Of a stretch of DNA of 64,000 bases, positions 32,176-38,128 are shown piece by piece (position 1 is the first letter of the stretch; every line of letters begins with the position of its first letter). Where the stretch lies: the NCBI GenBank assembly GCA_005881575.1, contig VBCA01000036.1:1710-65709 (forward strand), given 5' to 3'. This DNA is from Betaproteobacteria bacterium (GTDB taxonomy: Bacteria > Pseudomonadota > Gammaproteobacteria > Burkholderiales > SG8-39). The notes beneath the pieces were generated by a model that was not told the DNA's origin, ran no database searches, and worked only from the letters and a program-made list of their open reading frames with translations. The position numbers and the translations under genes are program-made.

Positions 32176-33690
32176 TCATGGGAGTTCAGTTCGATCGGCT
32201 CCTCGCTCGCTCTTTCCTGATCTTCCGCTTTCGACGTACTTGCGCGAGGTGCGCGGATCGAGCCCGGTCCGCTTGGCTACCTCGGCATACGTCCCGAGAC
32301 GCCGGTAGAGCAGCGCGCAATATTGCGCGAGTAGGTCCGCGGCCGTGAGTTCTCCCGTGCGCAGCTTGTCGAGCAGCGCCTCCTCTTCGCCCGGAGCCGA
32401 CTGGGGTTTATCGGCTGCATAACGGCCGGTGAGCAGGATGCGCCGGACCGCCTGCTCGAGCTCGCGCACGTTTCCCGGCCAGGCGTAGCCGCTGGGGAGG
32501 CCGCTCCCCAGCGCCGCCAGCACGGCTGCGACGAGATCGGGCGCCTTTGCGCCGGTGACGCGCGCGACGAGCAGCCGCACCAGCTGTTCGAGCTCGGCAG
32601 GCGATTCCGCGATGCGCTGCCTCAGCGTCGGAACCTCGATCACGTCGGAACACAGCCGGTAGAAGAAGTCGTCGCGGAAGCGCCCGTCGCGGCGCAGGGC
32701 GGCGAGCGGCCGGTTCGTCGCCGCGATGACGCGCCCCGAGAAACGTTTCTTCTCGTGCCCGCCGAGCGCGGTGAAGGTGCGCTCCTGCAGCACCTGCAGC
32801 AGCTTGATCTGCACCGGTATCGACGCCTCGCCGATCTCGTCGAGGAACAGCGCGCCGTGCGCATTGCAGCGCTCGAAGACGCCCTCGTGGTGCTCGATCG
32901 CGCCGGTGAAGGCGCCCTTGCGGTGGCCGAAGAGCTCCGACTCGATCAGCGTCTCCGGGAACTGCGACAGGTTGATCGTGATGAAGCTCTCGGCGAAGTT
33001 GGCCGCGAACCGGCGCTGCTCCACGACGTAAGGGATGAACTCCGAGCGCCCGATCGCGGCCGCGGCGGACCCCTTTCCGGTCCCGGTTTCGCCGAGGAGA
33101 AGTGTCGAGAAATCCTCCATGCGATTCCAGAGCGCGGCCTCGTAGCCGCGCATGTCGTGCGTGACGACGTTGTTCCACAGCGCCTCGCGCAAGCGCCGCA
33201 TCGATTCGCATTCACCGGCGAGCGAGCGCTCGATGAAATGGAACGCGCGCCGCAACTGGAAAAAGAGCGCGAAAAAACGCACCGCACGCTCCTCCGGAAA
33301 ACCGCTGCGCACCAGATCCGCGATCGAGTCGTCGCCGAACGGCACCGCGAGAGGCGCGCCGCCCTGTCCCGCCTGGCGCTCGATCAGCGCGTCGAGCTGC
33401 GGCACACAGCGGTGGTAGCACACATATAGAAAGCCCGGCTCGAGCAGGCGCCGGTCCTCGGCGCTCAATTTCTGCAATGCAGACGCGCCTTCGCGCAGCC
33501 ACGGCTCCAGGCGCGGCCCCACCACGCGCGCGAGCGCTTCGCGATCGCTCGTCAGATCGCCGAGCGGCGCGCCAGGGGCGAGCCGCACGATCAGCTGGTC
33601 GCGTTGCGGGGTGAAGGGATTGCCGAAAACGACGTCGGCGAGGGCGGTGAAGAAGTCGCGGTCGGGGGTGCCTAACCGGGTGGTGGACAT
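32176..33690 (-). CDS. Sigma-54-dependent transcriptional activator (bacterial enhancer-binding protein) with an unrecognised ~190-aa N-terminal domain
   Basis: ATG 33690. Motifs are Walker A GETGTGKG, ESELFGH, GAFTGA, Walker B LFLDEIGE, WPGNVRELE and a C-terminal Fis-type HTH (YAEVAKRTGLDPRTSRKY). I see no REC, PAS or GAF pattern in the N-terminus. Confidence 0.9.
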   Translation of the reverse strand: MSTTRLGTPDRDFFTALADVVFGNPFTPQRDQLIVRLAPGAPLGDLTSDREALARVVGPRLEPWLREGASALQKLSAEDRRLLEPGFLYVCYHRCVPQLDALIERQAGQGGAPLAVPFGDDSIADLVRSGFPEERAVRFFALFFQLRRAFHFIERSLAGECESMRRLREALWNNVVTHDMRGYEAALWNRMEDFSTLLLGETGTGKGSAAAAIGRSEFIPYVVEQRRFAANFAESFITINLSQFPETLIESELFGHRKGAFTGAIEHHEGVFERCNAHGALFLDEIGEASIPVQIKLLQVLQERTFTALGGHEKKRFSGRVIAATNRPLAALRRDGRFRDDFFYRLCSDVIEVPTLRQRIAESPAELEQLVRLLVARVTGAKAPDLVAAVLAALGSGLPSGYAWPGNVRELEQAVRRILLTGRYAADKPQSAPGEEEALLDKLRTGELTAADLLAQYCALLYRRLGTYAEVAKRTGLDPRTSRKYVESGRSGKSERGADRTELP

Positions 33691-33709
33691 GCATCCAATG
33701 TATGCCGAC

Positions 33710-33736
33710 CAAGCAACAAATGCCAGAGATTGCTTG
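33710..33736. promoter_or_regulatory. Inverted repeat CAAGCAA-N13-TTGCTTG, candidate enhancer (UAS) for the adjacent sigma-54 activator
   Basis: Read directly from the sequence. It is centred roughly 75 bp upstream of the -24 element, and an A/T-rich tract lies between them. Confidence 0.35.
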
Positions 33737-33790
33737 AAGAATAACCGATTCAGATGAACAAAAGTACAAAACAACAATTAGTTACGAGAT

Positions 33791-33806
33791 TGGCACGGTC
33801 GCTGCT
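33791..33806 (+). promoter_or_regulatory. Sigma-54 (-24/-12) promoter TGGCACggtcgCTGCT
   Basis: It matches the TGGCAC-N5-TTGCW consensus with correct GG-N10-GC spacing (GG 33792-93, GC 33804-05). It lies 42 bp upstream of ATG 33848, inside an AT-rich intergenic region and divergent from an EBP gene. Confidence 0.65.
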
Positions 33807-36058: not shown

Positions 36059-36090
36059 CTCTTACGTCGCAGTCGAACCGGACATCGACC

Positions 36091-36729
36091 ATGCGAATCC
36101 TCCTCGTAACGCAAGACCGCGATGCGCGCGAGAGGATGGCATCCGCGATCGGCATCGAGCCGCAAGTCCTATTCGCCGATTGCGCGGCGAGCGGGCGCGA
36201 AGCCCTGGCGTGTCTTGCCGCGCGGCGGCCGGAGGTCTTGTTCGTCCGTCTGCCGCTGCCGGACATGAACGGCGTGGAATTCGTGCGGGCGGCAAAGCGC
36301 GTGCTCGCGAGCTGCCAGATCCTGCTCATCGCCCCGGCCGGGACGGAGGAAGCGCTGATCGCCGCCCTCGAGGCGGGCGCCGCGGGTTGTGTCCTCGAAC
36401 CCTGTGATGCGCACGAGCTAGTGGGACACGCGCTGAAACTGCGCGCGGGCGGCTCGCCGCTCAGCCCGTTCGTCGCGAGAAAGCTGGTGGAACGCTTGCA
36501 CGCACGGACGCTCGCGCATGCAGCAGCCGTTGCGCTGACCGCCCGCGAATCGGATGTCGTTTGCCTCCTGGCGAGCGGCCTGAGCTATTCGCAGATCGGA
36601 GACAGGCTCGGCGTGTCGCTCAACACCGTCGGAAGCCACATCAAGAATGCCTACCGCAAGCTGGACGTCCATTCGGCGACCGCTGCAGTGATGCGAGCGG
36701 TTGAGCTGCAGATGCCCGGCAAGGCGTAG
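36091..36729 (+). CDS. LuxR/NarL-family regulator with a degenerate (pseudo-)receiver domain
   Basis: It has a GerE HTH (LTARESDVVCLLASGLSYSQIGDRLGVSLNTVGSHIKNAYRKL). By hand alignment to NarL, the receiver-like N-terminus has VLFVRLPLPDMNG where the phospho-Asp should be (Arg instead). The T/S position is ILLIAPAG and the Lys position is CVLEP. Confidence 0.85.
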   Translation: MRILLVTQDRDARERMASAIGIEPQVLFADCAASGREALACLAARRPEVLFVRLPLPDMNGVEFVRAAKRVLASCQILLIAPAGTEEALIAALEAGAAGCVLEPCDAHELVGHALKLRAGGSPLSPFVARKLVERLHARTLAHAAAVALTARESDVVCLLASGLSYSQIGDRLGVSLNTVGSHIKNAYRKLDVHSATAAVMRAVELQMPGKA

Positions 36730-36892
36730 CGGCACGGGGGTTCGTAGCCGCATGCAGCCTCCTTCTCACCGGATCATGGGATTGTGGGTCGCGCAGCGTC
36801 TGCGCAACATGGAGACGGTGCTTTGAACAATCGATCAAACCAATGCACGTCGGGCTGCACCGTCCCCGTGCGCCAAGCTGAGAGGAGGAACC

Positions 36893-38128
36893 ATGAACTC
36901 ACTTCGTACAGATATTCTTCGCACCCACGCCGGCCTCGGCGGAATGCTCGGCGGCCTTTTGGTGCTCGCCGCGACCTCAACGGCGCTCGCTCAGGAGAAA
37001 CCAGGGGTGGTGAACGTGGACTGCACCCAAGGCGAGACGATCTCCAGGGCGTTCACCCGAGGCAACGAGAGCAGGCCGCTGCTCGTCTTGGTCAGAGGCA
37101 CCTGCAATGAGTCCGTGCTCATCGATCGGAGCGACGTCACCATTCGGGGGGAAACCGGCTTCGGCGGCGGCATCGCGGGGCCCGATCCGAACATCGATAC
37201 GGTGACTGTGACTGCCAGCCGCGCGACCCTTGAAGGGCTCACGATCACCGGGGGGCGAAACGGCATCACGGTGAGCGGCGCGGCGGGGCTTACAGTCCGG
37301 AATGCGACGGTCCAGAACACCGGCCGGACCGGAATCGCCTTCGTCTTCGGCGCGAGTGGCGTCATCGACAGCTGCACGATCCAGCTCAATCCGCGTGATG
37401 GCGTCGTCGTCTCGGCGGCCCAGGCGACCGTCGTGAACTCGGCGGTGAGCCAGAACCGCAACGGAGTCCTCGTGCTTGATGGCGGCTCCGCCCGGATCGG
37501 CGTCGACAATCGGAACGCCCCCGGCGGCAATACGATCAGCATGAATGGTTCGAGCGGCATCGTCGTCTCGAACGGCAGCGCGGCGTCTATCGCGATGAAT
37601 CAGATCACCGGAAACGGCGCCGACCCGGCCGCGCCCGGAGGCGGCGTATTGGTGATTAGCTCGGCTGCCGTCATCGCGGGCGGCAACACCATCAGCGGCA
37701 ACGTCACGCAGGGCGTGTTTGCCCGCAGCGCGAGTGTCGTGATCGGCGATCCGGGCCTTGGCTTACCGACCGTCAACACGATCACTGGCAACGGGACCGG
37801 CAGCGCTGGCGGAGTATTCGGTATCTTGGGGGCGTCGATTGTGATTCGGGACGCCGTGATCAGCGGCAATAGCGGCGTCGGCTTGGGGCTGAGCCTCAAA
37901 TCTCAAGCCCAGCTGTTTGGGAGCACGATTCAGAACAACCCGGGTGACGGGATCCGGCTCCTCCTGGGCTCGGCACTCCTGATCTTGCCGCCGAGTACGG
38001 CCGTGTCGGGCAACACGGGCTTCGGACTACAGTGCCTAGATAGCGAGTCGAGCGTGGCCAACACGGGACTCCTGACGCTTTCGGGGAACGTCGCTGGCGA
38101 TATCGCGCCGGGCTGCTCGGGGTTCTGA
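36893..38128 (+). CDS. Secreted right-handed parallel beta-helix (PbH1) repeat protein
   Basis: GAGGAGG RBS and a Sec signal ending TALAQE. It contains many ~22-aa turns (GITVSGAAGLTVRNATVQNTGRTGIAF...; NTISGNVTQGVFA...; VISGNSGVGLGL...). Confidence 0.85.
   Translation: MNSLRTDILRTHAGLGGMLGGLLVLAATSTALAQEKPGVVNVDCTQGETISRAFTRGNESRPLLVLVRGTCNESVLIDRSDVTIRGETGFGGGIAGPDPNIDTVTVTASRATLEGLTITGGRNGITVSGAAGLTVRNATVQNTGRTGIAFVFGASGVIDSCTIQLNPRDGVVVSAAQATVVNSAVSQNRNGVLVLDGGSARIGVDNRNAPGGNTISMNGSSGIVVSNGSAASIAMNQITGNGADPAAPGGGVLVISSAAVIAGGNTISGNVTQGVFARSASVVIGDPGLGLPTVNTITGNGTGSAGGVFGILGASIVIRDAVISGNSGVGLGLSLKSQAQLFGSTIQNNPGDGIRLLLGSALLILPPSTAVSGNTGFGLQCLDSESSVANTGLLTLSGNVAGDIAPGCSGF

Follow-up and report, generated by a model that had tools for sequence, protein, structure and literature searches.

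The subject of this report is a stretch of 64,000 nucleotides, hereafter called the window (positions 1,710 to 65,709 of contig VBCA01000036.1, assembly GCA_005881575.1, from a Betaproteobacteria bacterium of the Burkholderiales), and within it a locus where the gene for a sigma-54 enhancer-binding protein (EBP) is divergent from genes for an Ig/Kelch lipoprotein, a LuxR-type regulator and a secreted beta-helix protein. A preliminary description, made from the sequence alone, had proposed these four genes as a module. We compared the locus with a set of 84 related loci; counts given for the family are over 85 loci, and those for upstream sequences over 82. Judged from these comparisons, the conserved unit is the EBP together with its control region, and not the four genes.

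Genes and control features of the locus

The genes and control features are listed below; the term Kelch loci is used for the four loci in which the Kelch lipoprotein accompanies the EBP.

32176..33690, minus strand: EBP, sigma-54 enhancer-binding protein of 504 aa, start ATG 33690 (Pfam Sigma54_activat)
33690..33702, no strand: enhancer site 1, TGCATCCAATGTA; same motif and offset (+3 from the start codon) in most of the 82 loci
33710..33736, no strand: inverted repeat CAAGCAA-N13-TTGCTTG of the preliminary description; window-specific, brackets enhancer site 2
33712..33724, no strand: enhancer site 2, AGCAACAAATGCC; 22 bp from site 1, offset +25
33772..33784, plus strand: integration host factor (IHF)-like site, CAACAATTAGTTA; 2 mismatches to WATCAANNNNTTR
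33791..33806, plus strand: sigma-54 -24/-12 promoter, TGGCACGGTCGCTGCT; core invariant in the four Kelch loci
33832..33837, plus strand: Shine-Dalgarno sequence GGGAGG of the lipoprotein gene; TTCATGGGAGG kept in all four Kelch loci
33848..36058, plus strand: lipoprotein of 736 aa with lipobox Cys32, an N-terminal beta-rich region, two Big_5 domains and a six-bladed Kelch propeller (Pfam, AlphaFold2, Foldseek)
36091..36729, plus strand: LuxR/GerE-type regulator with a pseudo-receiver (Arg53) (Pfam GerE and Response_reg)
36744..36788, plus strand: conserved non-coding block of ~45 nt (..GCCGCATG..TCTCACCGGATCATGGGATTGT..), candidate promoter or operator upstream of the beta-helix gene
36893..38128, plus strand: Sec-secreted right-handed beta-helix (PbH1) protein (Pfam Beta_helix)

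A conserved control region

The intergenic region between the EBP and lipoprotein genes spans 157 bp, and the preliminary description had placed a near-consensus -24/-12 element there. This placement held: TGGCACggtcgCTGCT at 33791..33806 is the sole exact match to TGGCAC-N6-TGC in 64 kb, and in the aligned intergenic regions of the four Kelch loci CTGGCACGG..C..GCT is invariant, though the lipoproteins encoded behind it are only 55-68% identical. Across the family, 55 of the 82 loci have a TGGCAY-N5-NTGC element on the divergent strand, at 76-158 bp (in one case 229 bp) from the EBP start codon, against a chance expectation that we ourselves estimate at ~0.4. The distance is mostly 91-103 bp and holds regardless of the cargo gene behind the promoter.

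The inverted repeat that had been put forward as the upstream activating sequence (UAS) is physically present, but its arms are unconserved in the other Kelch loci (L006, L007 and L008) when the four regions are aligned, and the block that is conserved among them lies directly against the EBP start codon. The enhancer that is conserved is another motif, a 13-bp palindrome, TRCAW-N3-WTGYA, of which the first 200 nt of the 82 loci hold 91 copies versus 4.0 in shuffles. Pairs of this palindrome 20-22 bp (two helical turns) apart, at offsets +3 and +25, occur in 21 loci, from Burkholderiales to Planctomycetota, versus 0.005 in shuffles. In the window, site 1 abuts the start codon, its first base (33690) being the A of the EBP ATG on the minus strand; the exact sequence TRCAWNNNWTGYA is found in the window at site 1 only, and the two sites (33690-33702, 33712-33724) form the only such pair in 64 kb. 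An alternative EBP start at TTG 33777 was rejected, given that all orthologues begin at the ATG and that the DNA upstream of it is kept as enhancer, not as codons.

Moreover, 33 of the 55 loci with a promoter have an IHF-type site (WATCAANNNNTTR, at most one mismatch) that precedes TGGCA by 4-7 or 15-18 nt, versus 1.8 in shuffles. The layout of UAS, bend and sigma-54 promoter that had been described is conserved, although its UAS is not the one proposed, and the comparison of loci argues that the element is a true sigma-54 promoter, conserved together with a bend site and an enhancer upstream.

The activator and its N-terminal domain

The EBP can be divided as follows:

33121..33690, minus strand: N-terminal domain (aa 1-190), all-alpha, putative sensor or regulatory domain (AlphaFold2 model; unmatched in Pfam)
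32431..33117, minus strand: AAA+ sigma-54 interaction domain (aa ~192-420) with Walker A, GAFTGA and Walker B
~32980..33090, minus strand: family-specific insertion of ~20 aa (GRSEFIPYVVEQRRFAANFAESF; aa ~205-235), between Walker A and the next conserved AAA+ helix
32227..32313, minus strand: putative C-terminal helix-turn-helix (aa ~460-488); weak HTH_29, MerR and sigma70_r4 matches

The divergent activator gene was correctly recognized in the preliminary description: Sigma54_activat (PF00158) matches at E=1.6e-43 (148.8 bits against a Pfam cut-off of 20.2), and the translation has the Walker A motif GETGTGKG, DEIGE and GAFTGA, the last within the sigma-54 contact loop GHRKGAFTGA that is also kept in family fragments. 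By its AAA+ domain, its GAFTGA loop and its cognate promoter, the protein is identified as a sigma-54 activator, for which rpoN- and ATP-dependent activation is predicted. The Fis-type helix-turn-helix ascribed to its C-terminus has no hidden Markov model (HMM) backing, since HTH_8 is unmatched in Pfam and only weak matches to HTH_29 (E=0.004), MerR and sigma70_r4 fall on aa ~460-488. All named EBP equivalogs (NifA, NtrC, RtcR, NorR, PrpR, PspF, AtoC and others) score far below their NCBIfam curated cut-offs; the top one is NifA, with 178.5 bits versus 528.85, and every match spans only aa ~192-428. Matches to PDB sequences are likewise confined to the AAA+ core, where residues 193-424 of the EBP align against 212 residues of FleQ/NtrC, or the alignment restarts only at 228-235. 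The ~20-aa insertion is common to the EBP family from Burkholderiales to Planctomycetota.

The N-terminal domain had been described as ~190 aa without a recognizable pattern, and database searches agree: aa 1-190 have no Pfam match even at E<=10, no NCBIfam model and no PDB sequence match. The AlphaFold2 model has nine helices (pLDDT 86.8, pTM 0.85), and a Foldseek search with it against the PDB returned nothing significant (best E=0.9, TM<0.3); no weight was given to low-probability matches with TetR/FadR-type and nuclear-receptor ligand domains. The domain carries many invariant Arg residues. It is an undescribed all-helical domain without a Pfam or NCBIfam model or a PDB neighbor, and the cassette that contains it is not described in Pfam, NCBIfam, the PDB or the searchable literature, so that within these sources the combination is, as first supposed, not a described system.

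A scan with the N-domain alignment of one genome per GTDB species found 544 relatives, carried by Burkholderiales metagenome-assembled genomes (MAGs), Rokubacteria, Nitrospirae, Accumulibacter and Pseudogulbenkiania subflava DSM 22618, as well as by Gammaproteobacteria, Desulfobacterales, Verrucomicrobia and Planctomycetota; plasmids searched with the N-domain were unmatched. An exhaustive phmmer search of 1.84 billion representative proteins gave 491 clusters at E<=1e-3, and among the 150 matches listed the N-domain match lies at or near the N-terminus of full-length proteins (~470-640 aa, mostly ~480-510 aa). Identity of the EBP is 78-92% with its counterparts in the other Kelch loci and 47-79% with those of 80 loci from GTDB genomes, and several MAGs hold two cassettes with unlike cargo (L026/L043, L021/L029, L027/L048). 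A protein search by the N-domain alone gave only fragments of at most 363 aa, several of them from frameshifted long-read assemblies, and the full-length context was therefore taken from loci. In L001/L009 and L002-L005, which come from long-read metagenome assemblies, frameshifts break up the EBP gene, and many N-domain "proteins" in databases are fragments; searches for the family at the protein level are distorted for this reason.

Cargo behind the promoter

Cargo was identified by conservation-weighted gene picking followed by HMM scans; single-linkage clustering of raw six-frame open reading frames was dropped because it merged the EBP with antisense shadow frames. As called by a hydropathy heuristic, which missed some short signal peptides including that of the window's lipoprotein, and by inspection of the sequences, the first cargo gene is one for a membrane or exported protein in ~40 of 53 cases and one for a GerE regulator in 8; the envelope fraction is thus part heuristic and part inspection.

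The cargo classes are varied. They comprise a fatty-acid desaturase, in many cases accompanied by a TAtT lipoprotein and a DctPQM TRAP transporter; membrane proteins of a ceramidase-like (PF05875-related) type, found within the flanks of 18/85 loci; GerE regulators of 69-90 aa; in Accumulibacter, B12-binding radical-SAM enzymes; lipoproteins of several families, one of which has a TbpB-type barrel; and LplT/Aas-like genes and a Hydrolase_4. In L066, L069, L072, L085, L086 and other loci of the PVC group, the cargo is a VIT-VWA protein with a GlyGly-CTERM-like tail and a rhombosortase, the latter near threshold at 83 bits for a cut-off of 84, and such a set would be a sigma-54-controlled sorting system. 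In some Gammaproteobacteria (L070, L079, L081, L082), a PspA/IM30 homologue and a polytopic membrane protein lie beside the EBP. The earlier statement that the set has no enzyme is thus right for the window and wrong for the family.

Genes for DUF1302 outer-membrane proteins flank the EBP in L008, L016, L019, L020, L023, L025, L048 and L001. In Pseudomonas putida, DUF1302/DUF1329 genes and a LuxR-type regulator have been linked to fatty-ester use (bioRxiv 10.1101/2020.07.04.188060), which may be taken as a loose parallel only.

The output genes in this lineage

The signal peptide of the lipoprotein ends in the lipobox ...LLAGLSVIALTS-C32-GGGDD (ALTS-C32, with Gly at +2; criterion [LVI][ASTVI][GAS]C), as it does in the orthologues, and the protein is predicted to be lipidated and, because of the Gly at +2, anchored in the outer membrane. 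The lipoprotein and its six Kelch blades, as first described, stand, but Pfam sees two Ig-like domains (Big_5) rather than three, residues 45-215 being modeled by AlphaFold2 as beta-sandwich(es) at low confidence. The propeller is recognized by Pfam Kelch families and has six MIVWGG repeats, with 24 strands over residues 437-730 in the AlphaFold2 model; Foldseek relates it to the Kelch domains of KLHDC2, LZTR1 and Keap1 (probability 1.00, TMt 0.72-0.82). At the DNA level, the blades appear as:

35182..35999, plus strand: tandem repeat, 150-bp unit x 5.5 with 79% matches, encoding Kelch blades

This repetition suggests recent amplification or concerted evolution. The number and spacing of the blades vary among lipoprotein orthologues. 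Full-length relatives are 55-71% identical. In JGI, homologues bear the label "N-acetylneuraminic acid mutarotase", which we set aside as a generic COG name; with 17 bits versus the NCBIfam cut-off of 256.35, the lipoprotein is not a member of the NanM/YjhT sialic-acid mutarotases. The structural genes had been thought to be lower in GC than their flanks, and this is true of the lipoprotein gene (GC 0.59; GC at third codon positions, GC3, 0.70) but not of the LuxR and beta-helix genes, which are not compositionally atypical, GC3 being 0.80-0.85 in the EBP, LuxR, beta-helix, MFS and ArnT genes. Between the window and its closest relative, L006, the lipoprotein has a dN/dS of 0.37, compared with 0.15-0.18 for the EBP, LuxR and MFS proteins.

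The LuxR gene starts 32 bp past the lipoprotein stop, and no plus-strand terminator was found between 33848 and 38128; from the short gap and the lack of a terminator, the lipoprotein and LuxR genes are inferred to be co-transcribed. The regulator has a GerE helix-turn-helix (PF00196, E=1.8e-14) and a receiver fold (PF00072, 48.1 bits against a cut-off of 30.2) that aligns end to end with VraR, DevR and NarL. The absence of the phospho-acceptor Asp, already remarked upon from the sequence, was confirmed by residue-level alignment, in which Arg53 takes the place of VraR Asp55 (ILMDL) and DevR Asp54, and other active-site residues are gone as well: the acidic pair DD is TQ, the Thr is Ala and the Lys is Glu. 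By these residues, the receiver is a true pseudo-receiver and the protein not a canonical response regulator. The VpsT-type c-di-GMP motif is W[FLM][TS]R, and VpsT-like binding of c-di-GMP was ruled out, as the protein has no Trp. The L006 orthologue, 88% identical, also lacks the Asp, and the counterpart in L007 and L008 is an 80-aa GerE-only protein. Since sister loci have bare GerE domains of 69-90 aa, the pseudo-receiver is, on this comparison, a lineage-specific addition. A LuxR/GerE gene lies within the flanks of 21/85 related loci, a recurrence that upholds the proposal of two-tier regulation.

The beta-helix protein was likewise identified correctly, with Beta_helix (PF13229, E=5.4e-33) matching in four stretches. 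A catalytic signature was looked for in the protein and none was found; the NosD model gives 23.1 bits for a cut-off of 300, and there are no nos genes in the flanks. Its contexts were collected from 30 metagenomic homologues. In L089 the gene lies between a LuxR gene and an MFS gene, as in the window; in L092 and L093 it directly follows a Kelch gene; and in L110-112 and L117 it follows the EBP, as in L042. In addition, a C-terminal beta-helix remnant is the first cargo in L046. About 20 of the 30 homologues have no EBP, LuxR or Kelch gene in their flanks, and the gene is absent from L006, L007 and L008. From these contexts, it reads as a recurrent but optional passenger. The ~45-nt block before it has counterparts in L042 (~9530..9590) and L089 (~300..345) and is common to the window, L089 and the L042/L110/L117 lineage despite an unlike upstream gene; it is absent from the ~20 beta-helix loci lacking an EBP. 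The block is a candidate LuxR/GerE operator, and only a candidate, because just two independent lineages share it.

Neighboring genes, sister loci and relocation

Two further genes lie to the right of the locus, and one elsewhere in the window recalls its lipoprotein:

38165..39460, minus strand: convergent ATG22-like MFS transporter (Pfam), syntenic right-hand border of the module
39617..41275, plus strand: ArnT-like glycosyltransferase
8272..10881, plus strand: second low-GC lipoprotein (GC 0.61, GC3 0.75; LILSGC) with PKD/Ig-like repeats and a C-terminal PbH1-type beta-helix

The MFS gene, 90% identical in L006 and present as the same family in L007/L014, L016, L039 and L089, had been overlooked when the set was said to have no transporter. 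The second lipoprotein shares with the Kelch lipoprotein the design of a lipid anchor, an Ig stalk and a beta module; a sigma-54 promoter and an enhancer motif were not found upstream of it.

The other Kelch loci, three contigs with enough flank (L006, L007, L008), have the order EBP (minus strand), lipoprotein, LuxR/GerE. In L007 and L008, the bare 80-aa GerE gene is followed by one for a 270-aa ceramidase-like membrane protein; L006 has a ceramidase-like gene downstream of the EBP, and the window has none. At 6753..11112 of L006, in place of the beta-helix gene, lie a gene for a 398-aa protein without a family match and four lipid-type genes, for an OlsE-like hydroxylase, a PlsY-like acyltransferase, a FeeM-like N-acyl amino acid synthase and a PhnW-like aminotransferase, a group that looks like an aminolipid-type biosynthetic set.

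In addition, the whole block of L006 (1247..12355), which runs from the ceramidase-like gene and the EBP to the MFS gene, is flanked by two sequences that directly adjoin each other in the window, at 24705|24728; the L006 flanks are 91-92% identical in DNA, and the window's own EBP-to-MFS block is 7.5 kb from this point. The insertion between window-adjacent sequences therefore argues that the module has moved as a unit. Repeats, tRNA genes and integrase genes were not found at the module junctions, and tRNA and Rfam scans of the window were empty.

Comparison with known systems

A close parallel is the pspF-pspA system of Escherichia coli, in which enhancer-bound PspF, aided by IHF, activates pspA and represses pspF (PMC3709507). 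Like PspF/pspA-E, the cassette has an activator divergent from its sigma-54 target, two UAS in the region common to both genes, an IHF site placed between enhancer and promoter and a probably envelope-related output, and some EBP relatives adjoin PspA homologues. PspF negatively autoregulates through the same enhancer, and autorepression in the cassette would follow from the position of the sites. The systems differ in that PspF has no N-domain and is controlled by PspA, whereas the EBP has the conserved 190-aa N-domain and the ~20-aa AAA+ insertion; the EBP scores 152.8 with the NCBIfam PspF model, for a cut-off of 443.55, and both enhancer sequence and cargo are different.

With the ligand-binding members of the NtrC family, namely XylR/DmpR (V4R), NorR/FhlA (GAF), PrpR and RtcR (CARF), the EBP shares the order of a putative sensor, an AAA+ domain and a putative helix-turn-helix and the absence of a cognate kinase, and the cassette shares the distal enhancer, IHF site and -24/-12 promoter. 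Its N-domain is unlike these sensors, none of which was matched in Pfam or NCBIfam, and it matched no PDB fold.

The output proteins also have known relatives. Aspartate-less pseudo-receivers belong to the general concept of phosphorylation-independent regulators (PMC4395418, PMC12632262), and the LuxR protein has in common with those of the NarL/FixJ type a REC-like fold without phospho-acceptor and a GerE helix-turn-helix, with phosphorylation independence expected; unlike the others, it is itself encoded in a putative sigma-54 operon. The lipoprotein has the six-bladed fold of NanM/YjhT, KLHDC2, LZTR1 and Keap1 (TM 0.72-0.82 to the eukaryotic Kelch domains), and differs from known Kelch proteins in its predicted lipid anchor, its Ig-like stalk and blades that are near-identical at the DNA level. 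The beta-helix protein resembles NosD and pectate-lyase-like periplasmic proteins in its PbH1 repeats and Sec signal peptide, but differs from NosD in score, in lacking the nos context and in having no identified catalytic residues. The cassette is undescribed at the family level, and its architecture is ordinary for sigma-54 systems.

Weighing the explanations

The explanation we favor, with fair confidence, is that the locus belongs to a widespread, unnamed sigma-54 cassette in which activator and control region are conserved, the cargo is swapped and the response is one of envelope or membrane-lipid remodeling. That it is probably an envelope or membrane-lipid response follows from the family's cargo of membrane-lipid enzymes, lipoproteins, a sortase-like system and PspA. 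Several points weigh against this explanation. The lipid and envelope theme is guilt by association throughout, and the cargo classes come from heuristic gene calls on unannotated MAG contigs. The window itself has a degenerate enhancer site 2 and two mismatches in its IHF-like site; neither rpoN nor ihf genes were seen in it, and the C-terminal helix-turn-helix of the EBP is not recognized as Fis-type (HTH_8) by Pfam HMMs. The Kelch lipoprotein offers only a generic peptide- or protein-binding fold as a functional clue, and the link from LuxR to the beta-helix gene draws on a block shared by only two independent lineages.

The alternatives reach from chance to a dedicated system. One of them holds that the -24/-12 match and the repeats arose by chance in an AT-rich intergenic region, and for it one may point to the window's 11 matches with one mismatch allowed, versus 16.9 expected; the match is, however, exact, unique and conserved in sequence and position over 55 loci in several phyla, and the comparison refutes this view, to which we give virtually no credence. 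The model of the preliminary description, a dedicated, co-inherited adhesin or polymer-degradation system made of EBP, Kelch lipoprotein, pseudo-receiver LuxR and beta-helix protein, can appeal to gene order, as EBP, Kelch and LuxR/GerE genes are collinear in all four Kelch loci, LuxR/GerE being next to the lipoprotein gene in each, and as the beta-helix gene follows LuxR in L089 and the Kelch gene in L092 and L093. A fixed module of four genes did not survive the comparison of neighborhoods: Kelch is found in only 4/85 EBP loci, L006 has OlsE-like, PlsY-like, FeeM-like and aminotransferase genes instead of the beta-helix gene, ~20/30 beta-helix homologues are EBP-free, and neither a catalytic signature nor NosD membership (23 bits versus 300) speaks for degradation. 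We consider this model improbable. It is possible, though we doubt it, that the cassette is primarily a regulator of membrane-lipid homeostasis whose ancestral cargo in this clade is GerE and a ceramidase-like hydrolase, with Kelch and beta-helix genes as recent passengers unrelated to the signal. It is common (L012, L036, L010 and others) for GerE and then a ceramidase-like gene to come immediately after the promoter, L007 and L008 have the order Kelch, GerE, ceramidase-like, the Kelch gene is atypical in GC3 (0.70) and evolves faster, and the ceramidase-like gene has been lost from the window. Yet Kelch is kept behind the promoter down to 55% identity and under purifying selection (dN/dS 0.37), and lipoproteins of other families are frequent as first cargo; surface proteins therefore look like a regular output rather than an accident.

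What the N-domain does is a separate matter, on which we hold two ideas, each of them rather unlikely when taken singly. It may be a cytoplasmic sensor of a new class, responding to the state of the envelope or of membrane lipids, for example through an acyl or lipid intermediate or a membrane-associated partner. Or it may serve a protein anti-activator as a docking surface, on the pattern of PspA-PspF or NifL-NifA, with the signal read elsewhere, for example at the membrane. PspA/IM30 homologues and a polytopic membrane protein beside L070, L079, L081 and L082 are consistent with docking, as are an all-helical domain with many invariant Arg residues and the absence of a pocket-type neighbor among the structural matches; against it, no partner gene is conserved with the EBP across the loci, and PspF itself has no N-domain.

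Proposed mechanism

For a sigma-54 cassette with swapped cargo, the following course may be proposed. The activator would bind both palindromes through its C-terminal helix-turn-helix and, because these sit on its own 5' end, would probably repress its own synthesis in the manner of PspF. The N-domain would restrain the AAA+ ATPase until a cytoplasmic signal or partner frees the activator, after which bending by IHF would let the activator hexamer open the sigma-54 promoter. Here, this promoter would transcribe the Ig/Kelch lipoprotein and the phosphorylation-independent LuxR-type regulator, and the latter would be a second tier, acting most likely on the block before the beta-helix gene and possibly elsewhere. 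In this lineage, the surface-exposed binding output of the cassette would then consist of the lipoprotein and the beta-helix protein.

Significance

The speculative four-gene "system" gives way to a hierarchy in which the activator would control the lipoprotein and LuxR genes, and LuxR in turn the beta-helix gene. What is new is the putative sensor domain, the family-wide enhancer and the portability of a cassette that drives lipid and envelope genes in many phyla. Sigma-54 activators are classed by their sensor domain, and that of the EBP has no description, structural neighbor or named family, although the EBP family, with its precisely conserved enhancer, spans hundreds of species from Burkholderiales to Planctomycetota. 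Because the control region is so stereotyped, the regulon is predictable from sequence alone, and it is rich in membrane-lipid enzymes and envelope proteins; Pseudogulbenkiania subflava DSM 22618 is a cultured carrier of the family. If the N-domain is indeed a lipid or envelope sensor, the EBP family would represent an unrecognized, multi-phylum regulon of envelope and lipid homeostasis, and its sensor, enhancer and sigma-54 promoter would form a portable unit serving desaturases, ceramidase-like hydrolases, lysophospholipid recycling, rhombosortase substrates and surface lipoproteins.

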